Shown: positions 25,203-55,814 of the stretch, in pieces
Layout: every line of letters begins with the position of its first letter
Numbering within the stretch: position 1 is the first letter of the stretch
Virus record (IMG/VR): IMGVR_UViG_3300021387_001267
Span: 1-64,000 of that record
Direction: 5' to 3' (one strand)
Length of the DNA stretch: 64,000 bases
Source of the DNA: a virus
Taxonomy: Duplodnaviria; Heunggongvirae; Uroviricota; Caudoviricetes
The notes under the pieces: model-generated
What the model was told of the DNA's origin: nothing
The model's input: only the letters and a program-made list of their open reading frames with translations
The model's database searches: none
Made by a program: the position numbers and the translations under genes

Positions 25203-25274
25203 TTGTCCTCCTTCTCCTGTTTTTTTTAATCAGGCAATTTGTATTGTACAAATTCCGCCATTAAGTTTCCTTCT

Positions 25275-25802
25275 TTAAACCTTACTCCATACCAGCCCAG
25301 GCGAAGAATTTTGTTCTCGGATCATGCTTTTATGATCTTCACATTCACGAATCGCTTCTTTACTTCGTTGCTCAAGCTTCTCTTTTAATTCTTCAGTGAC
25401 ATTTTCTCTCTTTGTAGCTAAATATACGTCACAAAGCTTTTTGTCACCCCAATAATAATGTTTATAAGTTAGAACCTCGATTCCGAGATCGTCCAATAAG
25501 CTTAAATCCATTAAATCTTCTGTATACGGATGCCATTGAACACTGCGTACACCGCGTTCACAAAATTCAATAAGACTAATAATCTCAGAAGGAGTCAGTT
25601 CTTTACGCTTTATCAAGCACCGACGCCGTTCTTTATTTGGTTCTACAAATTCAATTTCTTCAAACTCAGTTTTTCGTCCTTTTACCATTCTTTTTCCAAT
25701 GATTTTAGTAATATTGCATTGCCCAATAATGGCCTCATGAGTAATGATGTAATTTCCACGATCGTCAACTTTAAACAGGTAGCCTTTCGTAGATTTTTTC
25801 AT
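25275..25802 (-). CDS. hypothetical protein
   Basis: ORF track 175 aa; AGGAGGAAAG SD. Confidence 0.5.
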   Translation of the reverse strand: MKKSTKGYLFKVDDRGNYIITHEAIIGQCNITKIIGKRMVKGRKTEFEEIEFVEPNKERRRCLIKRKELTPSEIISLIEFCERGVRSVQWHPYTEDLMDLSLLDDLGIEVLTYKHYYWGDKKLCDVYLATKRENVTEELKEKLEQRSKEAIRECEDHKSMIREQNSSPGLVWSKV

Positions 25803-26115
25803 TTACTTTCCTCCTGTTCAGCATATGAATGTCATGTTCATATTTAAAATGGTCCATTAGTTGTTCTTTACTCAAACCATATTGCTCAAATATCCAAAGA
25901 ATACTTTTTAATTGCTGCTTTGCGTGCTCTTTTTCGAGTTCATCGGAAGAAACCAGCGCTAATCGATCTTTATATTGTTTCCAGTTTTCGAGAAGAAATT
26001 TTACGTCGAGGATATGCATACAATTCAAAGGCCTAAGGCATGGCGAATTTCTGAGCCATAAAGCATAGTCCGGCATATTCGCAGGACATAGATCGCATTT
26101 GGTTATTTGATACAT
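25771..26115 (-). CDS. hypothetical Cys-containing protein
   Basis: ORF track 114 aa; overlaps downstream gene by 32 nt. Confidence 0.45.
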   Translation of the reverse strand: MYQITKCDLCPANMPDYALWLRNSPCLRPLNCMHILDVKFLLENWKQYKDRLALVSSDELEKEHAKQQLKSILWIFEQYGLSKEQLMDHFKYEHDIHMLNRRKVNEKIYERLPV

Positions 26116-26817
26116 TTACTCCTCCATCGTAATAAACTCCGAATAGGGCAAGCTACGGATCCAGTCACAATACTGATGCCACTCATCGAGCTTGTGGTTT
26201 TTCCTCTGCCGATATTGCGCCGCCAGAACTTCATAGTTCAGATCGATGGTCCTCTTCTGGTTATAGGAACTCGGAAGCAGCTGGATCATCTGGTACCAGT
26301 AGACTTTGTCTCTGGTTTTCAGAAAAGCTTCTCTTGCAGCGTTCATCATTTCAATCTGAATTTTCAGACTGTCATACGGTCTTAGTTTTCCATCTTCAAA
26401 ATCCTTCGAACTAATCCAAAGTTCGTGCGGCATATCTACTGCCGGAATCAAATGTTCACACGAAAAATCATCCAGCGTAAATTCCTTCGCCTGAATCTTA
26501 TGCATTGTGGAGCAGCTGTTCGAGACCGTTGCAATTTTGTAAGTTTCAAACTCTTTCCACCAATAAAGAGGCGCCGTCACATCCATTTGGACATGAACCA
26601 TGCGCCTCCATTTTGCTTCCTCGGTTCCTCCCTTGCAGAGATTCATGAGGAGTTTATGATCATTAGGGCCGATGTATGCCGATCCTCTGTGGCAAGACAT
26701 TCCTTCGTCATCGCACCAAAAATCAGTATCAGACTTTTCTCGACTGTTCATTGGATTTCTGCAGCCAAGTATAGCCATTCTCCATCCGAAAACTTCAGTA
26801 TTCTCGATTTTAATCAT
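26116..26817 (-). CDS. divergent ThyX-like (thymidylate synthase complementing protein fold) protein without canonical RHR motif
   Basis: ORF track 233 aa. Blocks VHVQMDVTAPLYWW and KIATVSNS resemble, from memory, the Thermotoga ThyX segments FHVKAPIFVARQW and RIASYNELS. The RHR-x7-S catalytic motif itself is absent. Confidence 0.35.
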   Translation of the reverse strand: MIKIENTEVFGWRMAILGCRNPMNSREKSDTDFWCDDEGMSCHRGSAYIGPNDHKLLMNLCKGGTEEAKWRRMVHVQMDVTAPLYWWKEFETYKIATVSNSCSTMHKIQAKEFTLDDFSCEHLIPAVDMPHELWISSKDFEDGKLRPYDSLKIQIEMMNAAREAFLKTRDKVYWYQMIQLLPSSYNQKRTIDLNYEVLAAQYRQRKNHKLDEWHQYCDWIRSLPYSEFITMEE

Positions 26818-27499
26818 CTATATGCCTCCAATTAATATTTTGAGCAGCGTCGCTTATCGTCGTTCTGTTAACACCAAATTTTCGAGCTAAAGCAGCGAAA
26901 CCAAATTCACGATCGTTCTTTTTATATACTTGACGAATATAATGGACATCGTTTTCAGTTAATTTATGAATTGGGTTGTTTTCGCCATGCATCGGAGATT
27001 CTAGCCCATAAGCAAATGCATGTTTTAAATTATCAGAACGTGTACACCACTCTAGGTTTTCAACACGATTATCGGTCTTGACTCCATTTATATGATTAAC
27101 TTGTTCGAGATTATTTTCATTCGGGATAAAACATTCTGCGATTATTCTATGAATATCTCGATTCTTTTTGTTGATAATGGTATGCCGGTATCCATCTCTG
27201 CCTATAGCGCCCTCCATCATATGCCCATGAAGGTTATAAATATTTCCAGATGGAAACGCGGCATAGTGATCTTCAACAATTTTTCCGTCCTCAAGATTGT
27301 CGCCATTAAGCTCGATGACATGCTTAAATCTATTTATTCGGTAATCATTTACTGCATTTTTAGCATCATCTTCACATTTATACGTGCCAAGATTTATACT
27401 TTTAGATTTCTCACTAACAAATGTTTCATATTTTTGATTTTCAGTTTGCCGATAGCTTTTTGCAGGAAGATTCTTTATTGCATCTTCAATTTCAGTCAT
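26810..27499 (-). CDS. HNH homing endonuclease (HNH + NUMOD-like C-terminal DNA-binding helix)
   Basis: ORF track 26810..27565; start moved to MTEIEDAI with AGGAGGAGGG SD; HNH-type stretch NLHGH...HINGVKTDNRVENLEWCTRSDN and C-terminal FGFAALARKFGVNRTTISD. Confidence 0.7.
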   Translation of the reverse strand: MTEIEDAIKNLPAKSYRQTENQKYETFVSEKSKSINLGTYKCEDDAKNAVNDYRINRFKHVIELNGDNLEDGKIVEDHYAAFPSGNIYNLHGHMMEGAIGRDGYRHTIINKKNRDIHRIIAECFIPNENNLEQVNHINGVKTDNRVENLEWCTRSDNLKHAFAYGLESPMHGENNPIHKLTENDVHYIRQVYKKNDREFGFAALARKFGVNRTTISDAAQNINWRHIDD

Positions 27500-27522
27500 T
27501 TCTGTCCCTCCTCCTAGCTTGC

Positions 27523-27705
27523 CTAGATGCCAGTTTCTCCTTTCTGAATTCGCGACAGGTAACAATCTTTACAAATCTCAGTCGTCCCTTGCAAATGAAT
27601 AATGTCCGCGACGTTGATTTCCGGGCGCGAACATTCAACGGTTAATACCACCTTGAACCAAACGCCCATTTCCTTTCCGCAAATATCGCACTTATGAATT
27701 ATCAT
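27523..27705 (-). CDS. zinc-ribbon protein
   Basis: ORF track 60 aa; CDICG...CKDC. Confidence 0.45.
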   Translation of the reverse strand: MIIHKCDICGKEMGVWFKVVLTVECSRPEINVADIIHLQGTTEICKDCYLSRIQKGETGI

Positions 27706-27866
27706 TCAGTTACCTCTTTCATCACACAAATATAACGAACCATTACTTCATCACGAAAAATACATTTATAGCATTCATTTGTGCAGGTACTGTTCGGATT
27801 TCTGCACTTAACCTTCGCCTGAGGTAATCCATAAACGCAATCTCGACAATTATTCGTGCAAGTCAA
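27702..27866 (-). CDS. Cys-rich mini-protein (TTG start), paralog of 28602..28784
   Basis: Not in track; TTG start with GGAGGGAGAG SD and TTGA overlap with upstream stop; LTCTNNCRDCVYGLPQAKVKCRNPNSTCTNECYKC aligns with MTCSNNCQHCAHGIPQSSFICLNRNSTCNGHCDKC. Confidence 0.4.
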   Translation of the reverse strand: MTCTNNCRDCVYGLPQAKVKCRNPNSTCTNECYKCIFRDEVMVRYICVMKEVTE

Positions 27867-28123
27867 TAGTACTCTCCCTCCGCCCTGAGAAGTTCAGCAT
27901 CTAGTTCCATCTCAGGATTTCTGACATACATTCTTTCATCCGGCGCCATTTCTCTGGCTTTCATCAGAAGTTCTTTACCGATAAAACCTTCCATTGTTTT
28001 ATCATTAATGGTATACAAGGTTACAGGAGGAGTGCATACATTATCATAAACAATAAACTCCTTCTTGGCCCAACTCATTTCGTCGTGATCATACTCATCT
28101 TCAGTAATTACAAATGGTTTCAT
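27863..28123 (-). CDS. hypothetical acidic protein
   Basis: ORF track 86 aa. Confidence 0.5.
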   Translation of the reverse strand: MKPFVITEDEYDHDEMSWAKKEFIVYDNVCTPPVTLYTINDKTMEGFIGKELLMKAREMAPDERMYVRNPEMELDAELLRAEGEYY

Positions 28124-28137
28124 TTAGTTTCTCCTTT

Positions 28138-28335
28138 TCAAATATAATCCTTACAGATTCGGCAATCTACACCAATTGCATCTACTATTGCCACCATACT
28201 CTCTGGAAAAGTTCTTCCATCTCGAAAATCATTCCATGAGATAACGTCCATATAATAACCGGTAACGAGGTCGCATGGATAGGATTTAATGAAATCGACA
28301 AATTCATCTCGACTTACTTTCTGCCAGTTTTTCAT
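28138..28335 (-). CDS. hypothetical protein
   Basis: ORF track 28138..28425; start moved to MKNWQKV with GGAAGGGAGA SD. Confidence 0.45.
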   Translation of the reverse strand: MKNWQKVSRDEFVDFIKSYPCDLVTGYYMDVISWNDFRDGRTFPESMVAIVDAIGVDCRICKDYI

Positions 28336-28336
28336 A

Positions 28337-28609
28337 TTAATCTCCCTTCCAAAGCATAGGACTTCCGTCAGGATTGAGCAGTACAGTAAAATTACCAGTG
28401 TTATATGTTCCACAAGATACAGCATACATGACTTTAGTATCTCGATGATATACGATTCGATATGAGTCCATACCGCTTCCTTCGACGATAATAAACATCG
28501 ATACTGGCTTTTGTGGCTTTTCGTCTACTCGCTCAATTGGCGTACCGCAGCCAATTAGAAAGAACGCAAATATCACGCAGAGTAATGCACAAATGATTCG
28601 TTTAATCAA
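28337..28609 (-). CDS. lipoprotein (signal peptide plus lipobox LIGC)
   Basis: ORF track 90 aa; MIKRIICALLCVIFAFFLIGCGTP is a Sec/SPII-type signal with a lipobox; candidate superinfection-exclusion protein. Confidence 0.55.
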   Translation of the reverse strand: MIKRIICALLCVIFAFFLIGCGTPIERVDEKPQKPVSMFIIVEGSGMDSYRIVYHRDTKVMYAVSCGTYNTGNFTVLLNPDGSPMLWKGD

Positions 28610-28784
28610 TTGGTTCTCCTTTCCTATTTACCCAATCCAATGAACAAATATAACGAATCGACTCTACAGCACTATATGAACATTTATCACAATGCCCATT
28701 GCATGTAGAATTTCGATTTAGACATATAAACGACGATTGAGGTATCCCGTGTGCACAATGTTGACAGTTGTTCGAACAGGTCAT
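28602..28784 (-). CDS. Cys-rich mini-protein, paralog of 27702..27866
   Basis: ORF track 60 aa. Confidence 0.45.
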   Translation of the reverse strand: MTCSNNCQHCAHGIPQSSFICLNRNSTCNGHCDKCSYSAVESIRYICSLDWVNRKGEPID

Positions 28785-28824
28785 TCAATTTTCCTTTCAA
28801 AAATATAAATAGGCCGCTGATTAT

Positions 28825-29055
28825 TCAACGACCTCTTTCCTCGACATTAAAACGATAATGATCATATAGATCTTCGTACGGTTTTGCATTAGCTCTGAGA
28901 TGTTCATTCAAACGGTCTGCGAATATGTTAGCATCGCTTCGATTGCGAAATACTTTAACAATTTCACAAAGATTGCTGTGCCAGCCAATATCCTGTCCGT
29001 TGCTGTCCTCATCTCGATACCAATGCTTTTTGACTACTACGTATGCTTTCATCAT
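28825..29055 (-). CDS. hypothetical protein
   Basis: ORF track 76 aa; GGAGGCGAAAATG SD. Confidence 0.5.
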   Translation of the reverse strand: MMKAYVVVKKHWYRDEDSNGQDIGWHSNLCEIVKVFRNRSDANIFADRLNEHLRANAKPYEDLYDHYRFNVEERGR

Positions 29056-29096
29056 TTTCGCCTCCTTCTATTAAGAAGGCTGTAATTATTGCGATC

Positions 29097-29495
29097 TTAC
29101 TTCTGCTTCGGTCCAAGAATGACAAGGCCAGGACTATCCATTTCCTTAACAAGAGACTCGGCTTCTTCTAGAGTGTCAAAACCAGCGATCATGGCTCCTT
29201 TGCAAACATCGCCGTGCGGACTACGATAATTTTCATCAATAACCAGATAGTCTTTGTTCCATTCGTCAACGCCTGTTTCCTTATACTTGTCTTCCAGCTC
29301 AGCAATCACATAGTCCTCATATGACTTCTTCCAGTCGACATCTACGTCCTTATTCGATCGAACGACATCGGCAGACCACAAAATAGCCCGCTCCAGCTCC
29401 TCTGTTGTAGCTCCGTTAACCGCCATATTGGTAATCAGATCAACCGCCCTCTTCATTGCACTTTTTCTTTCATCGACCACATAGTTTTTGCTCAT
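29097..29495 (-). CDS. hypothetical protein
   Basis: ORF track 132 aa; AAGGAGAATAAAGC SD. Confidence 0.5.
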   Translation of the reverse strand: MSKNYVVDERKSAMKRAVDLITNMAVNGATTEELERAILWSADVVRSNKDVDVDWKKSYEDYVIAELEDKYKETGVDEWNKDYLVIDENYRSPHGDVCKGAMIAGFDTLEEAESLVKEMDSPGLVILGPKQK

Positions 29496-29521
29496 GCTTT
29501 ATTCTCCTTTCGAAAATATAA

Positions 29522-29860
29522 TCACATACCCTCGCTGGCTCTATAGTAATCATACGATAATATTAAATCGGTAAGACCTGAGCGTAAACTATAATTTCGT
29601 TCGATAGCTTTTTGAAGTGATTCCCATGCTTCTGGAGCATTTCCTGGAATTAATTCAAGAGCTCTTTTAGACCCAATCGATTTGCCCAAAGCGAGTCCAG
29701 TTTGAAAAGCCTTATCTGTATTTACGCTTTTCTTTCCATTAGTAAATCCGAATTGATAGCAGATAAAACAGCCACCAGCAAATCCAAGCAAGCCTAATAT
29801 AAGCATGACGACCTGACTTTTTGTAATCTTTTTCTTTTCTTTTTTCTTATCGTCGCTCAT
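29522..29860 (-). CDS. membrane protein
   Basis: ORF track 112 aa; one TM (VVMLILGLLGFAGGCFICYQFGF). Confidence 0.5.
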   Translation of the reverse strand: MSDDKKKEKKKITKSQVVMLILGLLGFAGGCFICYQFGFTNGKKSVNTDKAFQTGLALGKSIGSKRALELIPGNAPEAWESLQKAIERNYSLRSGLTDLILSYDYYRASEGM

Positions 29861-29890
29861 AATTTGTTCTCCTTTTTAGATAATTTATAA

Positions 29891-30199
29891 CTATTCTGCA
29901 ACATAACACTGCTGAACAGTTATATCAGTCATAGATGTGATTTGGATATCGTTTTCTTCATCAGCATGAAAATGAAATGGACTATAGCATTGCTCGACTT
30001 CAGGATAATGTTGTTTAATATATTTGACTATGGAATCATAATCTTTAAATGCCATAGGAATAAAATTGCATTCACTTCGTATTACACGATACTCATGATC
30101 TGGATTGAAAACCGGCAATTGTTCATATTCGTGTTTCGAAACGTATGCTACGAAAACCCATCCGGGCATGTTTTTAGGTTTATAATATGGACGATCCAT
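29891..30199 (-). CDS. hypothetical protein
   Basis: ORF track 29891..30214; start MDRPYY with AAAGGAGAAT SD. Confidence 0.5.
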   Translation of the reverse strand: MDRPYYKPKNMPGWVFVAYVSKHEYEQLPVFNPDHEYRVIRSECNFIPMAFKDYDSIVKYIKQHYPEVEQCYSPFHFHADEENDIQITSMTDITVQQCYVAE

Positions 30200-30254
30200 A
30201 TATTCTCCTTTCAAAAAATATAAAAGAGCCTGCGAATTACAAGCTCCTTTATGC

Positions 30255-30554
30255 TTAGTTTTCGAAGATAGTAAACATCACCGAAGTTTCCATTGCCTCT
30301 GAATCGTCTTCACATTTGAAATAATGCGTTTCAGTATACGATACTTTTCCGTTGCTTTCTGTGCCAAAATCCTTAATTGGGATGCCGTCCTCAGACCAAG
30401 CTCCGGCTACTTCTTCATATACGACTTTCTTGTAGTCGCATCTGTCGATAAGCCGGAAAGCCTGTGACCAGCAATCCGCAATTCCAAGGAGATTCACCAT
30501 AAAACCACCGGAAAGCGCATACGATGCAATAACAACATACTTCCGTTCGTTCAT
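30255..30554 (-). CDS. hypothetical protein
   Basis: ORF track 30255..30569; start MNERKYVV with TGGAGGTAA SD. Confidence 0.5.
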   Translation of the reverse strand: MNERKYVVIASYALSGGFMVNLLGIADCWSQAFRLIDRCDYKKVVYEEVAGAWSEDGIPIKDFGTESNGKVSYTETHYFKCEDDSEAMETSVMFTIFEN

Positions 30555-30598
30555 AAACATTACCTCCATAATTTAATAATCTTCTATTATGGAAGTTG

Positions 30599-30955
30599 TT
30601 AATTTTGCGATCCTAATTCTTCTTCTGTTTCCTGCTGTGCCAACATATTATTATCACTGACATCGCAGTTTTCCAAAATACTCCAGAGTTCCGGTGCGAG
30701 CTTTGACTTCTTATTATTCTGCACAAGCTCGTTGATCTGCCCTCTTAGCATCAGATACTTTGTTTTCCAATAGCTCTTAGCGCTGTCTGTTCGGATATGA
30801 GGCATCGTGAGATCAAATATCATACGATACTCTTCTTCCGAAAGACCGAATCGGCGCTTGATTATACCAACAGTTTTTGATGGATTCTTCAGAATATAAT
30901 CCATGACAGCATTTATAGTTTTAATTTCATCAGGATCGAGAAGTGTCAGATTCAT
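30599..30955 (-). CDS. hypothetical protein
   Basis: ORF track 118 aa. Confidence 0.5.
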   Translation of the reverse strand: MNLTLLDPDEIKTINAVMDYILKNPSKTVGIIKRRFGLSEEEYRMIFDLTMPHIRTDSAKSYWKTKYLMLRGQINELVQNNKKSKLAPELWSILENCDVSDNNMLAQQETEEELGSQN

Positions 30956-30966
30956 GTTACGTCTCC

Positions 30967-32082
30967 TTAAATCGTCCGAATGGTGATACAGACTTCCACC
31001 AGCTTATCCTTGCACATGATCTTCATACCTTCCAGCTCGTCAGAATCAAGACCAATAGATCTGTAATTGGAAGTAAAGACCATCGTATGGTGGTTTGTTT
31101 CCTCAAGTTTCGGAGCCTCGGGTTCTTCAGGAATAAGATCAATGAAACCATCCTCAACAGGAATATAAAAGTCAGAAATATTGCTCTCCGGAAGTTCACC
31201 GCTCTTAGGCTTCTCCTCGGGTATTTTGGCCTCGATGCTTTTAGCGGATGGAGTCTCTTCTGCAGGATTCTCCTCCCCGATAATAGCTTTAGGTTCTTCC
31301 TTGGGTTGCTCTAGTACAGTTTCTTCCAAAGTAGATTCTCCTCTCCAATTTTTAAGAGCATCACAAAAATCTTTGTTCGCCTTCGCGGCATTGAACCCGC
31401 TCTTTCCACGCTTGATCTGCTTAAGAACTCCTGCCGCATCCAGTTTGCGTCTGAGATTGGTGGCGGGAAGCTCAAAGAGTTCTCTTTCGATAGCGGCAAA
31501 AGATACTCCATACTTATCGATGAGCGAATTCAGATAGAGAACCTTCTCATCTGTCGTGAAATTGGAGAATTCTTCGAAACTAATAAACTCAGCATCATCA
31601 ATAATATTACGCTTTCGCTGAGCTTCGGAGAGATCAATAATCTTAGCAGTCTTTTCTCGTTCGCGCCAAATCTCGATTAAATCGTGAAAGTCCTTAATGT
31701 CATCGTCGGTCACATCTAAGGCGTTAATTTTTACGATTTTCTTGTCAACGCCCTTGATCTTGAGCCGGGCCATTAGATCACGTTCGCCAAGCTCAAAGAG
31801 ATACTTACTCACCTGCTCGTGCCGGACGTGATACTTTTTGCAAAGATTATTCACATATTCGGCTTCGAGATCGGGATCCATCTTCTTGAATGTCTCATAA
31901 TCCATGAATCCACCAAGATCATATTCCTTGCACTCGCCATGCTTACGGTTGATCTCCTGCCAACTCATCGGCTTATTCCCAAGTTTCGAAACAGCCGATC
32001 CACCCTTTTTGTGATGCACACCATAGCCGGCTACCTTTCTCTCGCGATTGGTTTGTTTGAGCACCTGAGCAGCTTCGTTCAT
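30967..32082 (-). CDS. hypothetical protein with internally duplicated ~55-aa domain and acidic/Pro-rich C-terminal half
   Basis: ORF track 371 aa; two repeats (F..F....D.E..Y.N.L..KY.V.....LFEL....L...L...GV) at roughly aa 60-115 and 165-220. Confidence 0.5.
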   Translation of the reverse strand: MNEAAQVLKQTNRERKVAGYGVHHKKGGSAVSKLGNKPMSWQEINRKHGECKEYDLGGFMDYETFKKMDPDLEAEYVNNLCKKYHVRHEQVSKYLFELGERDLMARLKIKGVDKKIVKINALDVTDDDIKDFHDLIEIWREREKTAKIIDLSEAQRKRNIIDDAEFISFEEFSNFTTDEKVLYLNSLIDKYGVSFAAIERELFELPATNLRRKLDAAGVLKQIKRGKSGFNAAKANKDFCDALKNWRGESTLEETVLEQPKEEPKAIIGEENPAEETPSAKSIEAKIPEEKPKSGELPESNISDFYIPVEDGFIDLIPEEPEAPKLEETNHHTMVFTSNYRSIGLDSDELEGMKIMCKDKLVEVCITIRTI

Positions 32083-32127
32083 TAATTCCGTTCTCCTTTT
32101 ATTAAATTTTTAAAAATCAGTCGTCTA

Positions 32128-32292
32128 TTACTTGTCTTTCTTATCTTTGGTATCGGTATCCGTCTCATCGTCTCGACTCATGAGATAATATAATCTCTCA
32201 AGAGTCAGGCCGAGAGAACCGGCAATTGCCTGATCGCTCATTCCTCTCAGATGCTGCTGATTTACAAATGCGTTCAAGTCTGTTGTTTTCAT
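32128..32292 (-). CDS. small HTH protein (paralog of 19877..20191)
   Basis: ORF track 32128..32334; start MKTTDL with TAGGAGGAAAC SD; RGMSDQAIAGSLGLTLERL HTH. Confidence 0.45.
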   Translation of the reverse strand: MKTTDLNAFVNQQHLRGMSDQAIAGSLGLTLERLYYLMSRDDETDTDTKDKKDK

Positions 32293-32340
32293 TTTTTGTT
32301 TCCTCCTAAATATAGTTTGTATATTGCTGTGCACCGTACG

Positions 32341-32526
32341 TTAGAACTCCTTTGCATCAAAGTGCGAAATATAATCGGAAATCAATGTCCGTACAGTCTG
32401 CGAGATGGACAGCCCAGTAACTTCGCTGATTGATTTCAGCTTGGTATAGTCATCTTCGCTGAGCCGAAGTCGAAATGCCGACTCAAATTTTCCAGTACCT
32501 TTAGGTCTTCCGCGTTTATTTTTCAT
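32341..32526 (-). CDS. ribbon-helix-helix (Arc/CopG-like) DNA-binding protein
   Basis: ORF track 32341..32535 (TTG); moved to ATG MKNKRGRPKG. Basic N-arm followed by RLSEDDYTKLKSISEVTGLSISQTVRTLI fits a beta-strand-helix-helix fold. Divergent from the plus-strand gene. Confidence 0.55.
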   Translation of the reverse strand: MKNKRGRPKGTGKFESAFRLRLSEDDYTKLKSISEVTGLSISQTVRTLISDYISHFDAKEF

Positions 32527-32563
32527 ATATACCAACCTTCTTTTTAAATTTATTTTGAATTAA

Positions 32564-32592
32564 TTGCACAGATGAAAGATTTCTGTTAGAAT
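32564..32592 (+). promoter_or_regulatory. sigma-70-type promoter: -35 TTGCAC, 17-bp spacer, -10 TAGAAT
   Basis: Read directly from sequence; lies 15 bp upstream of the SD/ATG of the only plus-strand gene. Confidence 0.6.
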
Positions 32593-32607
32593 AGAAAATG
32601 CGAGGTG

Positions 32608-32832
32608 ATGAGAGTGTTCTACAGTGTTTTTGCTTTTCCGGATGATGCGCAGGACACGAATATGGACTTTGATGGCGATAGCTACATAGCAACCTGGACT
32701 GGTTCCGATGGTAAGCACCATTGCGAAATCCTGGATCCGGAAGAAGTAGAGACCGTCGAATGGCAAAATGCGCAATTGCCCGACGATGCTCTACAGTACT
32801 ATTCCGATGACGGCTGTTATTATCACGACTGA
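32608..32832 (+). CDS. acidic hypothetical protein, the only plus-strand gene in the window (start may be the GTG at 32614)
   Basis: ORF track 32605..32832; GAGGTGA SD; canonical promoter upstream; hairpin plus T-run terminator at ~32836-32883 downstream. Confidence 0.55.
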   Translation: MRVFYSVFAFPDDAQDTNMDFDGDSYIATWTGSDGKHHCEILDPEEVETVEWQNAQLPDDALQYYSDDGCYYHD

Positions 32833-32835
32833 AAA

Positions 32836-32883
32836 ACAAAAGAGAGACTGCTCGTAATTGAGTCAGTCCCTCTTTTTATTGTT
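32836..32883. terminator. bidirectional hairpin terminator (AGAGAGACTG...CAGTCCCTCT plus TTTTT), shared by the convergent 32608..32832 (+) and 32892..33152 (-) genes
   Basis: Inverted repeat with flanking A/T runs; near-identical copy at ~33631-33672. Confidence 0.55.
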
Positions 32884-32891
32884 GAAGAAGA

Positions 32892-33152
32892 TTACAACGC
32901 GCTCCAATTCATTGGCATCTGTCCTGTAATCTCCAGCGGGTTCAGGCCGAAATGGTCGGCGATCTTACGGACAAGATTCGCAGACGGGAGTCTCTTGCCC
33001 AGTTCATATGCACTCATGGTCGGCTGGTCAATACCAACCTTCTTCCCAAAAGCCTCCTGGGAGTATCCCATCTGTACTCTCATTCCGTACAGATTCCGAC
33101 CGGTTTTCCGATCAATAACCAGAACCTCGTTGTTGTACTTTGACATAGACAT
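32892..33152 (-). CDS. XRE/Cro-CI family HTH transcriptional regulator
   Basis: ORF track 86 aa; LYGMRVQMGYSQEAFGKKVGIDQPTMSAYELGKRLPSANLVRKIADHFGLNPLEI is a classic HTH_3 pattern. Confidence 0.65.
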   Translation of the reverse strand: MSMSKYNNEVLVIDRKTGRNLYGMRVQMGYSQEAFGKKVGIDQPTMSAYELGKRLPSANLVRKIADHFGLNPLEITGQMPMNWSAL

Positions 33153-33242
33153 AATAAATACCTCCTATAATGAATTAATAAAGTTCTTTCTTCTTCACTA
33201 TAGGAGGTGCAATTTTTGTGATTCTGTTATTTAATCAAGCAA

Positions 33243-33560
33243 TTATAGTCCGGCAAAATATACGTACAAAAACAGCAGTATAAATCCGATAGCGCATCCG
33301 ATTAGGATTCTGGAACGAACTTTATCCATACGGGCGTTCTCTTTTTGCCGGTGTTCCAGGCGCATTCTTTCAAGCTCGACGGATGCCTGCGCTTTAGCAA
33401 TTTCAGCCTCGTTGACATATCGGTTCGTAATCTCTTTTCGTTCAATGCCGTCATCCAAAAGAATTTTGGTACCGCAATAGGAACAGAAAATCTGTTCGCG
33501 TCCATCGTTGACATCGAGTGCAGCACCACATTCCGGGCATTTGACTTCGTAAGCTTTCAT
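33243..33560 (-). CDS. zinc-ribbon protein with C-terminal TM anchor
   Basis: ORF track 105 aa; CPECG...CSYCG then coiled coil then ILIGCAIGFILLFLYVYFAGL. Confidence 0.5.
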   Translation of the reverse strand: MKAYEVKCPECGAALDVNDGREQIFCSYCGTKILLDDGIERKEITNRYVNEAEIAKAQASVELERMRLEHRQKENARMDKVRSRILIGCAIGFILLFLYVYFAGL

Positions 33561-33681
33561 TTTGATTCGTTCTGCCTCCTTTCTTTAAGCTCAATTTTAA
33601 CATGACTTTTTCGTATCTGCAACATCAATGATAAAACAAAAGAGAAACTGCTCGTAATTTGAACAGTTTCTCAATGTGGTT

Positions 33682-33864
33682 TCATGTCGTAGATTCTTCG
33701 TGTCCTCGTGCCGCCCGGATAATGGCAATTACGATCAGCGAAACCGTCGTGCTGATCAGGTGGGTCAGAACAGCCCGAACAACGGACCGCCCAATCACCC
33801 GAGGCATCGGCTTCAGATAATGATCATATGTGCTTTTTCCAATAATAGCAAGAGTATTTTTCAT
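33682..33864 (-). CDS. small membrane protein (60 aa)
   Basis: ORF track 33682..33924; start MKNTLAIIG with AAGGAGGAT SD. Confidence 0.45.
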   Translation of the reverse strand: MKNTLAIIGKSTYDHYLKPMPRVIGRSVVRAVLTHLISTTVSLIVIAIIRAARGHEESTT

Positions 33865-33974
33865 GATAGAATCCTCCTTAATAATATTATTCCCATTATA
33901 TGAAATGCAGTTTTTGTGATTCATTTAATACAGGAATAACAGAAGCAGACTGTAATAGCCTGCTTCCATTGTAC

Positions 33975-34343
33975 TTACTTGAGAAGCCCCATGTCTGCGA
34001 GTACTTCGCCGCGGGATTCACCGTTCTTTACTCGGTGTTCAATCTCCAGAAGTTCCCTGCTGGTGAGCTCTCTGCGAAGCTTCCACCAGTGTCCCTCTAC
34101 AGGATCCCACATCTCGGTCTTCCGGTGATTATCGTCAGCCCGTCTTGCGCGTCTCTTGCTGGCCATCTTTACAACTTCGACGGCCGCAGGGACCGCAACA
34201 GATCCAACCGCGATAACAGTTTCCTTGTTTTCCTTAATGATCTCCCATTTTTCGGAACACCAGGCTTTCGCATCTGCCCAGGTCTCCTTCAGAGTTCTCT
34301 TTCTGGGATTTCCATTCTCATCCACATAAACAACGTTACCCAT
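33975..34343 (-). CDS. hypothetical protein
   Basis: ORF track 122 aa; AAAGGAGAC SD. Confidence 0.5.
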   Translation of the reverse strand: MGNVVYVDENGNPRKRTLKETWADAKAWCSEKWEIIKENKETVIAVGSVAVPAAVEVVKMASKRRARRADDNHRKTEMWDPVEGHWWKLRRELTSRELLEIEHRVKNGESRGEVLADMGLLK

Positions 34344-34455
34344 TTTTAAAGTCTCCTTTCAGATATAAATATTTGATTTCCCATTAAATGCATTGCAGTT
34401 TTTGTGAAAAAAAGAAAGCGACTGTAGAAGCCGCCTTCTTCGAGGAGTAGAGGGA

Positions 34456-34746
34456 TTAATTATCGTTATTCTTTTCTTTCCTATACTCGCGGAGTCCAAA
34501 CTGTATGGTATCAATAAGTATTGCCAGGCCAACTCCGCAGCACCCAACGCTGAGCATCGTGCGCCATTCGGATCCGTACCACCATTGTAGATACTCGGAA
34601 TAGGAAAATCCGAAATGACCCCAAATTTTGTCATACCATTCGGATAATCCAAATCCGTAATAAATTCCAAGAAATACGGCTTCGATCGCAATAATTACAG
34701 CAGTAATCTGCAGTTTTTCCTTTACGTTCTTCATGATGTTTTCCAT
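34456..34746 (-). CDS. membrane protein (3 predicted TM)
   Basis: ORF track 96 aa; AAAGGAGATAAT SD. Confidence 0.5.
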   Translation of the reverse strand: MENIMKNVKEKLQITAVIIAIEAVFLGIYYGFGLSEWYDKIWGHFGFSYSEYLQWWYGSEWRTMLSVGCCGVGLAILIDTIQFGLREYRKEKNNDN

Positions 34747-34875
34747 TGTATTATCTCCTTTTCTAGTAAGTTTTAGATCTTATTTTGATCCATTCTCCTC
34801 ACTATAAAAGGTGTAATTTTTGTGAGACAAAAAAAATAATAGCTGTTAAAATAGAGAAAATGTACTATTTTTCAT

Positions 34876-35007
34876 TTACTCTTCGTCCGGGCTGTGTAGC
34901 TCTCGACAATCATCATTCCCTGCAGTGGCCTTAACCCCCGTCGAAATATCTGATTTCGGAGTCCTAGCTCCGTTCCGGCTACGAATTTCTATTATTTCAT
35001 AATTCAT
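34876..35007 (-). CDS. tiny hypothetical protein (43 aa)
   Basis: ORF track 34876..35067; start MNYEIIEI. Confidence 0.25.
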   Translation of the reverse strand: MNYEIIEIRSRNGARTPKSDISTGVKATAGNDDCRELHSPDEE

Positions 35008-35063
35008 TCTCTCTCCAATATATAAATTGCAGATTCTGTGAAAAAAGAAAGCCCGTGTAAATA

Positions 35064-35279
35064 TCACGAGCTTTTGCAGATATCTTCTGGCGGTTTTATT
35101 CCGTATTTTGCGTATACAAGTTCCAAAAGAGATGTCATATCATCCGGTGTATAGCCTTGCGTCTTTATGCCAATTGCCGAAAGCCTGATCAACATATCAG
35201 GTGCTTTAACTGCCATATCGTTCATCCACTCGCAAAACTCATCTGCCAGGGCGTTCATTTTGGTTTTTGTAATTGCCAT
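35064..35279 (-). CDS. hypothetical protein
   Basis: ORF track 71 aa; AAAGGAGGTTTTAAAT SD. Confidence 0.5.
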   Translation of the reverse strand: MAITKTKMNALADEFCEWMNDMAVKAPDMLIRLSAIGIKTQGYTPDDMTSLLELVYAKYGIKPPEDICKSS

Positions 35280-35350
35280 ATTTAAAACCTCCTTTTTGTT
35301 TCTATTATAAAGAATGCAAAAATTGCGAAAAAAAAAAGAAAGACCGGTTA

Positions 35351-35623
35351 TTAAGCCGGCCCTCTTTCAATTCCGTATGTGTATATATAACCGTTTTTAT
35401 CTTCTTTGCTCGGCGTGTACCACTCGAAAATATTATTAGTATAATAAACTGGAGGAAATGGCGTCTCAACTCTATAAACGTTTTTAATAAATGTAATTGC
35501 CATCTTTATAGAGTCAAAGGATCCACAATATTCGCTATCAGAAAATAATAGTATTCCGGTAGTTTCGCCTTCTTCAAAGTATACTTTATAGCGTAATCTT
35601 TTTACAATATACACATATATCAT
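35351..35623 (-). CDS. hypothetical protein (start may be the GTG at 35614)
   Basis: ORF track 35351..35641 (GTG); ATG abuts the AAGGAG SD, whereas the GTG 9 nt further on has ideal spacing. Confidence 0.45.
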   Translation of the reverse strand: MIYVYIVKRLRYKVYFEEGETTGILLFSDSEYCGSFDSIKMAITFIKNVYRVETPFPPVYYTNNIFEWYTPSKEDKNGYIYTYGIERGPA

Positions 35624-35704
35624 CTCCTTTCCATTAAGCACCTTGTAAAATCGGTGAAAAAAGAAGCGACTGTAAAAGCCGCCTTCTTCTGATCCGTAAG
35701 TGGA

Positions 35705-36067
35705 TCACGCTTTCTTCAGGAAAAACTCCACCGTGGTTCCATTGTTGAGTTCTGCCGAGAAATTGTACTCAGGTCCGATAAAGAACCGTTTAATCGGCGT
35801 CATAAGCGGCCGGTTCTTCTTCCAGCGATCATTGATACGATCGATATACGGCTGAGTGAGGGCCCGAATATAAGTAACGTACTCGCCGTTCATGTCGTCC
35901 CCATCATCTGGGCCATCATAATTGGCATTCCATTTCTCATAATTCGGATTCACAGCATCGCAGTACTCGTTGTATACCCGCATGAAATCTCTTTCGGTCG
36001 CTGACTTGAACAGCGGATTCGGTTCCTTTCCATTGTACCTGAATTCAACATAATAGGTATCGCTCAT
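35705..36067 (-). CDS. hypothetical protein
   Basis: ORF track 120 aa; AAGGAGGTAAC SD. Confidence 0.5.
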   Translation of the reverse strand: MSDTYYVEFRYNGKEPNPLFKSATERDFMRVYNEYCDAVNPNYEKWNANYDGPDDGDDMNGEYVTYIRALTQPYIDRINDRWKKNRPLMTPIKRFFIGPEYNFSAELNNGTTVEFFLKKA

Positions 36068-36135
36068 TTTTGTTACCTCCTTAAAAATATAGTTTTTCCA
36101 CTAAATGCAGTGTAAATTTTGTGATTCTAATAAAA

Positions 36136-36156
36136 AGAGACCCATTGCAGGTCTCT
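36136..36156 (-). terminator. terminator hairpin AGAGACCCATTGCAGGTCTCT (identical copy at ~36503-36523)
   Basis: Perfect 8-bp stem with A-run / T-run flanks. Confidence 0.55.
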
Positions 36157-36441
36157 TTATAGATACGCTGGAATAAGTATTGGTATGTCATCCATCATAT
36201 CGCACTTTCCAAACACAGTCCATCCTTCAATGAAATCTCGTGCGTCGGCCTCCGGTATGTCGAACTCATATGCAACAAATTCCGAGGGATATGTTTCTCC
36301 GGTTTTTAGATTTACAGCAGTCGTATGCATATACGTCTTTACCGATTTTTGTCCCGTCGGAAGCATAAGGTCGTTCGAGCCATATAGCTTCACAAAATGC
36401 TCATGGTAGGCTGTGCGATGATGCAGAATTCTGAATATCAT
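36157..36441 (-). CDS. hypothetical protein
   Basis: ORF track 36157..36447; start MIFRIL with AAGGAGGAT SD; terminator AGAGACCCATTGCAGGTCTCT directly downstream. Confidence 0.5.
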   Translation of the reverse strand: MIFRILHHRTAYHEHFVKLYGSNDLMLPTGQKSVKTYMHTTAVNLKTGETYPSEFVAYEFDIPEADARDFIEGWTVFGKCDMMDDIPILIPAYL

Positions 36442-36543
36442 TACCATATCCTCCTTATAGTTTCTTCACTATACGAAGTGCAATTCATGCGATTGCGTAA
36501 AAAGAGACCCATTGCAGGTCTCTAAAGCGCTTACTTTATCGAA

Positions 36544-36747
36544 TTACGCAGTTTTGTTATCTGAGTTCTTTCCGGTGCCGATGAACGCGTCATATAGTCT
36601 GTCTCCAATATTTAGTTTATCAGCAAGTTCCTTCACCAGCTCAGTGGTAAAGATCCCTGCTCCAAACAAACGGATCAACAGATTCTGCATCCAGAACGGC
36701 AGTTTGTAAAAACGGTTTGAATTCAGAAGCTTTTCAAATGCTTTCAT
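36544..36747 (-). CDS. hypothetical protein
   Basis: ORF track 67 aa; identical terminator copy downstream. Confidence 0.5.
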   Translation of the reverse strand: MKAFEKLLNSNRFYKLPFWMQNLLIRLFGAGIFTTELVKELADKLNIGDRLYDAFIGTGKNSDNKTA

Positions 36748-36853
36748 TTTGATTTTCCTTTCGATTGATGTAAGCTTTACGCTCCATTATATAAACTGCA
36801 ATTTCGGTGAAAGAGATAGTCCGTGCAATTCACACAGACTATCTGAAAGAATT

Positions 36854-37069
36854 TTAACTGAGCTCTTGAGTCTGATACCATTTTTTAAACAATTCTTCTG
36901 GGTCCATGCCGCCGACAAGACGAACGATCCGGTGCCATTTCTTTGGCAGATAAAACTTGAAATTTACCAAGTTTTCACCATCTTTACCAACAACGTCGGA
37001 TTTTTCGTATGTTTCACCCTCAGCATGCTTGGCCATAATTTTCATTGCTTCAATTTCTCTGAATGTCAT
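36854..37069 (-). CDS. hypothetical protein
   Basis: ORF track 71 aa; AAAGGAGGCAATAAAT SD. Confidence 0.5.
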   Translation of the reverse strand: MTFREIEAMKIMAKHAEGETYEKSDVVGKDGENLVNFKFYLPKKWHRIVRLVGGMDPEELFKKWYQTQELS

Positions 37070-37168
37070 ATTTATTGCCTCCTTTAATTATAATAATCCT
37101 TTCCATTAAAACAGATGTAATTTTTGTGAAGTTAAAAAGAAAATAGTTGTAAAAGAAGAGAGCCGCTG

Positions 37169-37354
37169 TCAGCAGCGCTCCTTCCTGAAGAATCCAAGCA
37201 TGTATACGATTGTCACTATGATGGCAATGCAAATCATGTTGTATCCCATTTTGCCGATAATATCTACAATCACCGGGCGGTACATTTCTGCGTAGTGTCC
37301 GATAACGCCCTGGATCATGATAATTACCATTTTAATAAATCCATTATTCAACAT
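37169..37354 (-). CDS. small 2-TM membrane protein (61 aa)
   Basis: ORF track 37169..37474; start MLNNGF with TGGAGGAAAAAG SD; the track's N-terminal extension covers the conserved box. Confidence 0.45.
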   Translation of the reverse strand: MLNNGFIKMVIIMIQGVIGHYAEMYRPVIVDIIGKMGYNMICIAIIVTIVYMLGFFRKERC

Positions 37355-37470
37355 TTCTTTTTCCTCCATATAGTAAAGTTTAATTTGCTTATTATCTTCA
37401 CTATAGGAGCTGTATTTTCTGTGATCACAAATAAAAAAGGAAGACTCTGCAGAAATCTTCCTTATGCGAC

Positions 37471-37683
37471 TCACTCTTCGTAATAGTCGTAATCATCGTC
37501 ATATTCTGCAGGATCCTCCGGAAAGGCAATATCCCATCCAATAAAGCCCATCAATACGGCTGCTGCCATACTTGCAAGATCAAAGCCGACGAAATAAGTA
37601 ATCGCCACAAAGCCAAAAATGGCTATAACAAGCATTGCTATTCCGCTAAAAAGTCTGATCTTTTCAATATCGCGTTTTGTCAT
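37471..37683 (-). CDS. small 2-TM membrane protein with acidic tail
   Basis: ORF track 70 aa; CAGGAGGTTTAATC SD. Confidence 0.5.
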   Translation of the reverse strand: MTKRDIEKIRLFSGIAMLVIAIFGFVAITYFVGFDLASMAAAVLMGFIGWDIAFPEDPAEYDDDYDYYEE

Positions 37684-37776
37684 TTTGATTAAACCTCCTG
37701 TGTTTTTAATTCCTTTCCAATATATAAGTTGTAAAATTGATGAAAAAAGAGAGCCGTTGTAGACTCTCTTTTCGAA

Positions 37777-38286
37777 TTAATCTCCGACATAGTTCCAAAG
37801 ATTACCAAAATATTCGCGAGCTTCTTGATAGGTTTCTTCATCTATCAATTTGTCGCTTAACGCATGCCGAAATGCGTCATATGCGGCCATCTGAATTGGG
37901 TAAGTATTATACTTCTCCTCAAACTCAGCGTACATCTTACTGTAATCTTTTGTAGGATCAATCGGAACTTTAATCCTCAACTTCTTATCAATATCAATTC
38001 CACCTGTTAAGAAATAAATGTTTTGAGTTACATTTTGGACAACGAGGCCGGTTTGTTTTAAAACTGCCTGAAGAACATAAGGCTTGGTCTTATACAATAA
38101 GCCTGTAGTACGGTCATCTTTGCTTTTCGGAACCAATAGTTTCGGATAGCCGAAAAACTCGAAATTATAGCTAAAATAGTCAGTTATTGCATTAATCCAA
38201 GTAGTTTGTTCTTCGTTTGTCTTATGCGTTACCAAACACCACCATACGCGTCCATCTTCTTGTAATTTAAAATTAGCTTCATTCAT
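37777..38286 (-). CDS. hypothetical protein
   Basis: ORF track 169 aa; AAAGGAGAATAAAC SD after conserved box. Confidence 0.5.
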   Translation of the reverse strand: MNEANFKLQEDGRVWWCLVTHKTNEEQTTWINAITDYFSYNFEFFGYPKLLVPKSKDDRTTGLLYKTKPYVLQAVLKQTGLVVQNVTQNIYFLTGGIDIDKKLRIKVPIDPTKDYSKMYAEFEEKYNTYPIQMAAYDAFRHALSDKLIDEETYQEAREYFGNLWNYVGD

Positions 38287-38300
38287 TGTTTATTCTCCTT

Positions 38301-38365
38301 TCTGGAATATCTCCATTAAAGAAACTGCAGAATACGTGAAAAAAAAGAAGACGCAGTTTTTACGT
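38301..38365 (-). promoter_or_regulatory. conserved intergenic module copy (terminator AAGAAGACGTAAAAACTGCGTCTTCTT, T8, CACGTATTCTGCAG, TTTCTTTAATGGAGATATTCCAGAAAGGAG)
   Basis: Same architecture. Confidence 0.6.
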
Positions 38366-38369
38366 CTTC

Positions 38370-38621
38370 TTAAAGGCCCCTCTTAATATAACGCCGTATG
38401 TCATCTGCAACACAAATCGGCCATAAGCACCATAGTATAATGGCAATCACGCATATGATAAGAACGAAAGGCGACCACAGATTTTCGTTGAGTCCTTTGT
38501 CATTGAACTCTTTTCTTATATCTTTTGTGATTGTGTCCGTGAACTCATGATATGATTGCACCGCATATACTATTGCCCCGATAGCGTACAGAATAATAGA
38601 CATTAAAGTATTAGTATTCAT
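38370..38621 (-). CDS. small 2-TM membrane protein
   Basis: ORF track 83 aa; GGAGGTG SD within hairpin CCTCtatagtGGAGG. Confidence 0.5.
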   Translation of the reverse strand: MNTNTLMSIILYAIGAIVYAVQSYHEFTDTITKDIRKEFNDKGLNENLWSPFVLIICVIAIILWCLWPICVADDIRRYIKRGL

Positions 38622-38674
38622 TTCAACACCTCCACTATAGAGGATGCAATTTTTGTGAAAAAGAGACTAGCTGT

Positions 38675-38995
38675 TTAAACTAGCTCTTTATAGAGTATAA
38701 TTGGCTCTGGCTCTTCAAACCAAGGATCTCCAGCATTTAGTCTGATCTTGATGATCTGAAATGCTGCATACTGAATCGGCTTCCCTCGACGATCCGTACA
38801 GCTATTTGTGCAATACACATACCTGGAATGACGTTCAATCTCATCCTCATGCCAGCATTCAAACAATTGCTGCTTGAGAACATTGATTGCTTTCCGATGG
38901 TCTGTGTATACACCAAGCGTCCGTACATTGTCTTTTGGTCCGAACCCATGCGCATCAGACATCTGATACAAATATGTGTACTTGGCTTTTGCCAT
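38675..38995 (-). CDS. hypothetical protein
   Basis: ORF track 106 aa. Confidence 0.5.
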   Translation of the reverse strand: MAKAKYTYLYQMSDAHGFGPKDNVRTLGVYTDHRKAINVLKQQLFECWHEDEIERHSRYVYCTNSCTDRRGKPIQYAAFQIIKIRLNAGDPWFEEPEPIILYKELV

Positions 38996-39053
38996 TGTTC
39001 ATCACCTCATTAATTAGGTTGCAAAAATCGTGAAAAAAGAAGCTCGCTGTATT

Positions 39054-39383
39054 TCAAGCGAGTTCTTCTTTATCTATGGCTTTTGCTATGGGGTCTGCCG
39101 TAAATCCAAAGCATATCCAATCTCCAAATACGTCAATTACATACAGATAAGCATAGCCATACTCGTGCCTGACGATTACATTACCCCGTGAAGCAGTTGT
39201 GACATCGGAGAACCATGGGTCCCATGCCTTAACAGCATCCCCATAAGTTCTTGCTTGTCTAAGGCGAGATCTCCATCCATCAATATCTCCAACATAGTGC
39301 CACGGTCTGACATAAACATCGCCGGTAACCATTCTGGCCCCTGCCTTTGCAAAGACGCTCGAATTAAGATTTACACTACTCAT
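39054..39383 (-). CDS. hypothetical protein
   Basis: ORF track 109 aa; TGGAGGTAAATC SD. Confidence 0.5.
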   Translation of the reverse strand: MSSVNLNSSVFAKAGARMVTGDVYVRPWHYVGDIDGWRSRLRQARTYGDAVKAWDPWFSDVTTASRGNVIVRHEYGYAYLYVIDVFGDWICFGFTADPIAKAIDKEELA

Positions 39384-39451
39384 AGATTTACCTCCATAGT
39401 TTTATTTCTATCACAGAGGTTGTAATTTTTATGAAAAAAAGAAACTAGCTG

Positions 39452-39823
39452 TTAAGCTAGTCCTTTTTCTCTTGTGTATTGGTTTAGACTATTGAGGAGC
39501 ATTTGAAATGCTTTTGCAGCACTGACGCCGCCATAGACCTTATTTTTATGTCCATAAAGTCCAAAAACTTCAAGAAGATCCATTACTGCACCTTCCGAAT
39601 AGCAGTTCTCACGCGCTTTTCCTATGTGCTTCCCATTACTGTGCTTAAATATAATAGTAATGCCGCCATCTTCGTAATACGCATGATACGGAATCTCATA
39701 GCATTTAAGGGTGTCTTCAAGTTTCCGGATTTCATAAAAGCCTTCGTATGCTTTGCCTTTTTTCTTGCTGCGTACAAATTCCCACATTTCATCGCTCCGT
39801 CTAAATATCAATTCTTTGGTCAT
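39452..39823 (-). CDS. hypothetical protein
   Basis: ORF track 123 aa; TAGGAGGTGTATTTTA SD. Confidence 0.5.
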   Translation of the reverse strand: MTKELIFRRSDEMWEFVRSKKKGKAYEGFYEIRKLEDTLKCYEIPYHAYYEDGGITIIFKHSNGKHIGKARENCYSEGAVMDLLEVFGLYGHKNKVYGGVSAAKAFQMLLNSLNQYTREKGLA

Positions 39824-39871
39824 TAAAATACACCTCCTATAATATAAGGTGTATTTTTTGCGAAAGCATGG

Positions 39872-55791: not shown

Positions 55792-55814
55792 TTAAAATCT
55801 CACCTCATTTCGGA

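Follow-up and report, generated by a model that had tools for sequence, protein, structure and literature searches.

A putative moron-like gene for a very acidic protein converges on an XRE-family gene in a phage genome

Layout of the locus

The 64,000-nucleotide stretch analyzed here (hereafter, the window) covers positions 1 to 64,000 of the IMG/VR virus record IMGVR_UViG_3300021387_001267, assigned to the Caudoviricetes. It is part of a large phage or prophage, and its minus strand holds ~110 of the 128 greedily chosen open reading frames (ORFs). Our subject is a short cassette on the opposite strand, namely a gene for a very acidic 72-amino-acid (aa) protein (32614-32832, plus), which is preceded by a promoter-like site (32564-32592, plus) and followed by a two-way hairpin terminator (32839-32880, both strands, with the hairpin itself at ~32839-32877). 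The terminator is shared with an XRE-family helix-turn-helix (HTH) gene encoding 86 aa (32892-33152, minus; HTH_3 at 46 bits against the Pfam gathering cutoff of 23, E = 5e-12), toward which the acidic gene is transcribed. A zinc-ribbon protein gene with a C-terminal membrane helix (33243-33560, minus; zinc-ribbon hits in the Pfam search) lies upstream of the XRE gene. On its other side, the acidic gene is divergent from a gene for a small ribbon-helix-helix (RHH)-like DNA-binding protein of 61 aa (32341-32526, minus). An earlier, sequence-only reading of this DNA had singled out the region as a candidate regulatory switch built around the only plus-strand gene. The latter part holds, since the acidic ORF is the sole plus-strand ORF of at least 40 aa in the 64-kb window whose own frame beats every minus frame.

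The acidic ORF is a real gene under purifying selection. With 32 long minus-strand genes as its training set, a codon model gave it +0.31 bits per codon in its own frame and negative scores in all five other frames, a value comparable to those of the neighboring small minus-strand genes (0.14-0.36 bits per codon). Among plus-strand ORFs of at least 40 aa it ranked first (+22 bits in its own frame versus -18 bits on the minus strand). The ORF is preceded by a Shine-Dalgarno site. The likelier start is GTG 32614, which the gene callers behind public data chose and which is preceded by GAGGTG and yields the 72-aa product; an alternative start lies at 32605. Five close homologues, mostly of 72 aa, occur in public assemblies, and the reading frame is held down to 29-42% identity. 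Between the window and a related locus, L007 (related loci carry L numbers throughout), third codon positions take 31 of the 42 nucleotide differences in the gene. Three pairwise comparisons gave ratios of nonsynonymous to synonymous substitution rates (dN/dS) of 0.033, 0.073, and 0.101, with synonymous sites near saturation.

The guanine-plus-cytosine (GC) content of the acidic gene is 47.9%, which places it in the top 2.9% of same-size (219-nucleotide [nt]) windows (40.1 ± 4.3%), with the caveat that the adjoining XRE gene is likewise GC-high (49.4%).

A family of very acidic proteins

The acidic protein has a predicted isoelectric point of 4.05 and a net charge of -17 over its 72 aa, and its homologues, which span 64-72 aa, range from -10 to -17. 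The family conserves an F-x-F-P motif at the N terminus, the motifs (G/S)-D-(G/S)-(Y/F)-(I/V)-A-(T/M)-W and G-x(1-2)-H, and an acidic C-terminal half that usually ends in YYS-D/E-D-x-Y-x-Y-R-D. In two AlphaFold2 models, with mean predicted local distance difference test (pLDDT) scores of 63 and 65, residues 13-40 are predicted to form a three-stranded beta unit (pLDDT ~82), and the tail is of low confidence.

Searches of Pfam, PHROGs, PADLOC, and NCBIfam returned no match to the acidic protein, DNA-binding signatures included, and no anti-CRISPR (Acr) or defense-related family was matched. A profile search covering 1.8 billion protein representatives gained just two distant members (70-71 aa), and context searches added three more (64-72 aa). 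The other profile matches were repeat proteins aligned via a short beta-hairpin motif only, and they were rejected, as were the designed propeller repeats that alone came up in a profile search of the PDB with no single significant stretch. Foldseek searches of BFVD and the PDB with the models found nothing at E ≤ 0.001. Judged by these searches, what this analysis adds is a new, unannotated family of very acidic 64- to 72-aa proteins from uncultured phages, whose genes always converge on one XRE subclade.

Two relatives carry independent nonsense mutations in the acidic gene, at codon 50 in L002 (TGG>TGA, ~2691-2693) and at codon 51 in L027 (CAA>TAA, 538-540). Both stops fall just past the predicted beta domain, and beyond them the frame remains open. 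In some lineages, the acidic tail may be dispensable, or selection may act against it. Stop-codon reassignment was considered for the L002 change and rejected, since TGA terminates the window's own acidic gene and the other truncated relative has TAA.

A small acidic ORF with a good Shine-Dalgarno site also occupies a similar position on the opposite strand in the distant relative L006 (7102-7290, minus in L006), where it is divergent from an HTH-like gene. By BLASTP it is unrelated to the acidic family, and the 371-aa gene of that locus (see below) is 33% identical to the window's.

A conserved promoter candidate and a shared putative terminator

The promoter-like site consists of TTGCAC (32564-32569), a 17-nt spacer, and TAGAAT (32587-32592), with a TG at 32584-32585 that makes it an extended -10 site (TGTTAGAAT). 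The sequence-only reading had called it a textbook promoter. The hexamers and spacing are indeed present, but TTGCAC agrees with TTGACA at only 3 of 6 positions, and the quality of the match is no better than chance. In an alternative register found by our scan (TGCACA with a 16-nt spacer), 4 of 6 positions agree at -35 and 9 of 12 overall, plus the TG; 10 of 12 plus TG is attained nowhere in the window.

Support for the promoter comes instead from its position and conservation. The extended -10 element TGTTA-R-A-W-T and the spacer core (A/G)TGAAA(G/A)A-TTT, corresponding to the conserved spacer motif ATGAAAGATTT, are present in every locus for which upstream sequence is available, and L019 keeps both even though its -35 hexamer is lost. 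In L007, the core promoter shares 87.5% identity with that of the window and the flanking coding DNA 74-81%, with synonymous sites saturated (synonymous divergence [dS], 1.5-2.1); on this comparison, the conservation is a genuine footprint. We therefore treat positions 32564-32592 as a candidate extended -10 promoter of the host sigma-70/sigma-A type.

Within the spacer, no inverted repeat is conserved across loci or common with the XRE promoters. The left half of an ACAGA...TCTGT symmetry seen in the window is not conserved, and a LexA (Cheo) box, GAAAGATTTC, was rejected by eye because its spacing is wrong.

The claim that the acidic ORF converges on the XRE-family gene through a shared bidirectional terminator was borne out at the level of sequence. 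On either strand, the hairpin at 32839-32877 forms a stable fold (-19.0 and -22.5 kcal/mol; z scores of -5.6 and -6.3, with zero shuffles folding as well) and has T-runs on both sides. It is kept in at least eight loci, including those where the flanking proteins are merely 29-42% identical, and among relatives its left arm and loop, ACTGCTCGTA, show no variation; L022 and L023 have unrelated terminators instead. On the plus side, L012 and L026 do not have a good T-run. A second copy of the hairpin (33633-33672, minus) lies 3' of the gene at 33682-33924, and the two copies differ in their stems by paired changes. A collection scan for the conserved hairpin returned two known relatives only. 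The conservation of the loop exceeds what a plain terminator needs.

Candidate host-type promoters and a repeated phage motif

The window also contains a repeated promoter-like motif, TCRCAnnnnnTRCAnnnnnTWWART, in 26 copies versus 0.26 expected. Every one of them lies on the minus strand, and the acidic gene is served by none. They are distributed over 899-6066 (5 copies), 8178-29094 (5), 33197-39863 (14), and 46463-46592 (2), with none between 33197 and 29094, and come in two flavors, TCACAAAAAyTGCAnnnnnTATArT and TCGCAAtAATTACAGnnnCnTTAAT. The copies lie just past terminators, 25-45 nt upstream of the start codons of small genes. Their end is -10-like, but no -35 element occurs at 17 nt, which suggests that reading the motif involves a phage polymerase, a sigma factor, or an activator. 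Relatives that do not have the acidic gene carry the motif as well. Between 24 and 44 kb, we counted 30 terminator-like hairpins (13.8 expected), most of them minus-strand and many with the motif directly behind them. This small-gene region (24000-44000) is made up of many one-gene units.

One of these copies (33197-33221) belongs to the region upstream of the XRE gene (33160-33221, minus), together with a 15-bp inverted repeat (33160-33174/33194-33208) through which the ribosome-binding site of XRE would pair with the motif's -10 part (-21.8 kcal/mol; z score, -5.1). Twelve of the pairs are kept in nine loci, with one-sided G-U changes only and a loop of varying length. Such pairing would form only in transcripts begun further upstream, for example at a zinc-ribbon promoter. 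The zinc-ribbon gene stands upstream of the XRE gene in L007, L010, L012, L019, L022, L023, and L027, and the two genes are probably cotranscribed, since no terminator separates them.

The zinc-ribbon/XRE pair has a second host-type promoter-like site upstream of it (TTGCAG, 17 nt, TGTTAAAAT; 33594-33622, minus). Within the window, TTGC-N16-TGnTAnAAT is matched only here and at the acidic promoter, and comparable sites occur in L007, L010, and L012; given that two matches are the number expected by chance, the argument rests on their position. So placed, the acidic gene and the zinc-ribbon/XRE pair resemble a small island with putative host-type promoters, converging on one hairpin.

Probable insertion of the acidic gene in one XRE subclade

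Loci for comparison were gathered via the acidic protein and via XRE homologues. Wherever the XRE protein is at least 60% identical to that of the window, the acidic gene is present and convergent to it (8 of 8 distinct loci: the window group, consisting of the window, L001, and L002; L007; L010/L019; L011; L012; L021; L026; and L027). Across the loci with the acidic gene, the XRE proteins are 65-99% identical. L022 and L023, whose XRE proteins are 53-56% identical to the window's, contain the zinc-ribbon gene, the XRE gene, an unrelated terminator, ~100 nt, and then, directly downstream, a homologue of the conserved 371-aa backbone gene (30967-32082 in the window), with no ORF on the opposite strand. 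XRE relatives at 38% identity are also without the acidic gene.

We consider the acidic gene an insertion, because it is absent from deeper relatives that keep the flanking backbone genes; its raised GC content agrees with this. The simplest history would start from the ancestral backbone order zinc-ribbon gene, XRE gene, terminator, and 371-aa gene, with the acidic unit inserted after the terminator in one subclade and the RHH gene and a 54-aa HTH gene inserted later in the window's lineage. The divergent neighbor of the acidic gene varies among loci, being a homologue of the window gene at 30599-30955 in L012, the 371-aa-family gene itself in L019, and unrelated genes in L021 and L026. In L005, the 371-aa gene and the 54-aa HTH gene are retained, and the RHH, acidic, and XRE genes are all absent.

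In addition, a comparison of the window with L007 places a recombination joint at the hairpin (32833-32891): dS is 0.26 for the XRE gene, 2.1 for the acidic gene, and 1.5 for the RHH gene. The XRE proteins show zero amino acid changes over 82 aligned codons, and the zinc-ribbon genes share 73% DNA identity. By these divergence values, recombination has shuffled the parts after the insertion.

The 371-aa gene has no family match and apparently contains two similar internal segments (~residues 75-115 and 180-225).

A probable moron-like accessory gene

Given its own promoter and terminator features, its raised GC content, and its patchy presence among relatives, we interpret the acidic gene as a moron-like accessory gene, that is, a self-contained transcription unit that would be read by host RNA polymerase; we put the probability of this reading at roughly 60%. 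Moron control had been one of the possibilities raised by the sequence-only reading, and it is the one that the comparison sustains (GC content of 47.9% versus 40.1%; gene absent from L022 and L023, in which the flanking backbone genes are kept). Published work describes morons as additions relative to related phages that deviate in GC content and possess a promoter and a terminator of their own (PMC3594210). The acidic gene fits that description on three counts, namely presence/absence, composition, and, at the level of sequence, a promoter and a terminator.

The likeness to phage morons of the HK97/HK022 type extends to position, in that an extra gene with promoter-like and terminator-like sequences and divergent GC content sits between two backbone genes. 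Unlike those morons, however, the acidic gene is tied to one XRE subclade, shares the terminator of the XRE gene, and has a promoter spacer conserved as if it were regulated, and its acidic product has no recognized lysogenic-conversion function. The kind of element, a phage accessory unit, is already well known; the protein family is new.

We propose that host RNA polymerase would transcribe the acidic gene from the extended -10 promoter, independently of the 26-copy minus-strand motif, so that the protein would be produced when the DNA enters the cell, by a silent prophage, or in both situations. The shared hairpin would end the acidic transcript and separate the two converging transcripts. 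Going by its charge and size only, the product would most likely be a small inhibitor whose acidic tail binds and blocks a basic, probably nucleic-acid-binding partner such as a host defense protein or regulator. Many inhibitors of host defense or of host machinery come from small acidic phage proteins that have a host-type promoter of their own, which makes this family a sensible choice for functional screens. The cassette opens no long-standing question, and the switch idea behind its appeal is unsupported by the comparative data.

Known DNA-mimic inhibitors and anti-repressors (Ocr, ArdA, Ugi/p56, and CarS) resemble the acidic protein in small size and extreme negative charge, and CarS also in its beta-rich core (PMC2926617). 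They differ in that none shows sequence or fold similarity to it, and its low-confidence acidic tail is probably disordered rather than a rigid carboxylate array.

Several points weigh against the moron-like interpretation. The promoter is a candidate read from sequence, and consensus matches of its quality occur in the window at chance frequency (6 found versus 5.2 expected). The conservation of its spacer exceeds what a promoter needs and points to regulation. Similarly, the constant pairing with one XRE subclade and the unusually conserved hairpin could mark a functional pair rather than a free-standing moron. The GC deviation is based on 219 nt, and a neighboring backbone gene (33975-34343) is also GC-rich (51.5%). 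As for the product, the proposed inhibitor function is founded on charge and size, with no family or fold match, and the premature stops in two relatives mean that at least the tail is dispensable in some lineages.

Alternative explanations

One alternative is a repressor/anti-repressor pair, which we regard as unlikely overall. Here, the XRE protein would repress the acidic promoter via the spacer, and the acidic protein, as a DNA mimic, would bind the DNA-reading surface of the XRE protein, making a switch over early transcription or immunity. The strict co-occurrence and convergent layout with one XRE subclade speak for such a pair, as does the spacer motif ATGAAAGAtTT, which is kept even where the -35 element is not. 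In addition, the XRE protein has an HTH domain only; without a sensor or cleavage domain, it would need a protein antagonist, and acidic beta-fold anti-repressors that mimic operator DNA are known, CarS being a precedent (PMC2926617). However, the XRE relatives in L022-L025 do without the acidic gene, and the two genes do not co-evolve, as is evident from their dS values in the window and L007 (0.26 for XRE versus 2.1 for the acidic gene) and the recombination joint between them. No operator motif consistent across loci is shared by the acidic promoter and the XRE or zinc-ribbon promoters. The XRE gene also bears the same promoter-like motif as other genes of the small-gene region, which would suit a temporal regulator better than a lysogeny repressor. 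The missing common operator and the presence of XRE genes in deeper relatives that have no acidic gene also speak against the switch raised by the sequence-only reading. The XRE protein may nonetheless regulate the acidic gene.

The locus also invites comparison with acr-aca loci, in that a small, very acidic, unannotated protein is encoded next to an ~85-aa HTH protein in a phage and the promoter looks strong and possibly regulated. In described acr-aca loci, acr is upstream of aca in one operon whose promoter is repressed by Aca (PMC8633003, PMC12282945). The acidic and XRE genes instead converge from separate promoters, and this convergent rather than operonic layout counts against an Aca-like pair as well as against the repressor/anti-repressor pair. 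A wider formulation, which we hold equally doubtful, would make the acidic and 86-aa XRE proteins a new convergent control pair, with the acidic protein acting either as a DNA-mimic anti-repressor of XRE or as an anti-defense inhibitor whose promoter XRE tunes in the manner of Aca. Host RNA polymerase would read the pair independently of the 26-copy motif, and the pair would decide whether the small-gene program runs.

A function at the level of the transcript seems less probable still. On this account, the plus-strand promoter would oppose read-through from the XRE operon and, together with the hairpin, would insulate the block from the RHH gene onward, by interference or as antisense RNA, with the protein being secondary. 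The placement is suggestive, since the unit, with its convergent layout and shared terminator, sits between the last motif-bearing gene (XRE) and a block with no recognizable minus-strand promoter (32880 to 29094). Interference, though, needs no conserved 72-codon frame, and the strong purifying selection on the acidic gene (dN/dS, 0.03-0.10) implies that the protein itself matters. Moreover, the poor plus-side T-runs of L012 and L026 mean that termination on the plus strand is not uniformly kept.

The sequence-only reading had raised a likeness to lysogeny/lytic control loci. Built on the divergent RHH/acidic pair, such a switch would have the two genes share an operator region, as in immI of phage P22 (mnt/arc-ant). 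We find this very unlikely. The divergent layout itself is present, across 69 bp by the starts in the ORF list or 87 bp by the likelier starts (for the RHH gene, ATG 32526 rather than the listed TTG 32535). Hits to the RHH-like gene are sub-threshold only, both in PHROGs (Arc-like repressor, 8.8e-5; phrog_876, 4.7e-7) and, under the curated cutoffs, in Pfam (DUF6290, 2e-4; RHH_1, 0.042) and NCBIfam (RelB, 3.6e-4), and a search against PDB sequences gave no hit. The sequence pattern agrees with one strand and then two helices, and the product is probably an RHH protein. Such a protein, the short gap, and a phage that is probably temperate are what a switch of this kind could draw on. Nevertheless, the RHH gene, present in the window, L001, L002, L007, L014, and L027, is absent from four loci (L012, L019/L020, L021, and L026) that all keep the acidic gene and the same promoter core. 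By this distribution, it is a lineage-specific neighbor and not a conserved partner of the acidic gene.

The remaining evidence runs the same way. The acidic protein is not recognizable as DNA-binding, and no convincing minus-strand promoter for the RHH gene was found in 32536-32880. The candidates picked by eye there (TTCTAA-17-TGCAAT and GTGCAA-17-TAAAAA) are weak and were discarded, because the -10 hexamer is poor or because the resulting transcript would lack the ribosome-binding site. The integrase gene lies 10 kb off, on the same strand as everything else. P22 immI, with its sar antisense RNA, does offer a likeness, being a temperate-phage region in which a small RHH gene and another small gene diverge from a short control region. 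It differs in that the partner here is neither an RHH repressor nor homologous to an antirepressor, the RHH gene does not keep its place beside the acidic gene across loci, and no Arc/Mnt-type operator was identified. Nor does the acidic locus have the two divergent DNA-binding regulators with overlapping operators that define a lambdoid-type switch.

Finally, the idea that the acidic ORF arose by chance, antisense to DNA that is non-coding or codes on the minus strand, is refuted by the codon score, the third-position differences from L007, and dN/dS: a 107-aa minus-strand ORF (32516-32839) does overlap the acidic ORF, but it scores -0.21 bits per codon, the substitution pattern is compatible with the plus frame only, and gene callers predicted the 72-aa protein in independent assemblies.

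Other features of the window

A DNA search of a phage collection with 6 kb around the site as the query gave zero matches, no record resembling the region, and a scan of a collection of species-representative genomes found no relative. An Rfam scan of 30-37 kb returned nothing, and a family match is missing for most of the window's genes other than those named here.

The tyrosine integrase gene (42910-44019, minus), because of which we consider the phage probably temperate, is on the same strand as every other gene, and a CI-type repressor is absent nearby. A gene with a RadC-like JAB domain is located at 41123-41542. The endolysin gene (50382-52004, minus) encodes CHAP and peptidoglycan-binding domains; these domains and the strong Shine-Dalgarno sites indicate that the hosts are probably Gram-positive. 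Genes for tail and host-recognition proteins occupy 54682-63466 (minus). Two adjacent paralogues among them (54682-55791 and 55815-56831), each with BspA-type leucine-rich repeats as well as DUF6273, probably serve in host recognition. Three further adjacent paralogues, at 995-1945, 2641-3531, and 3562-4050, belong to DUF6353.

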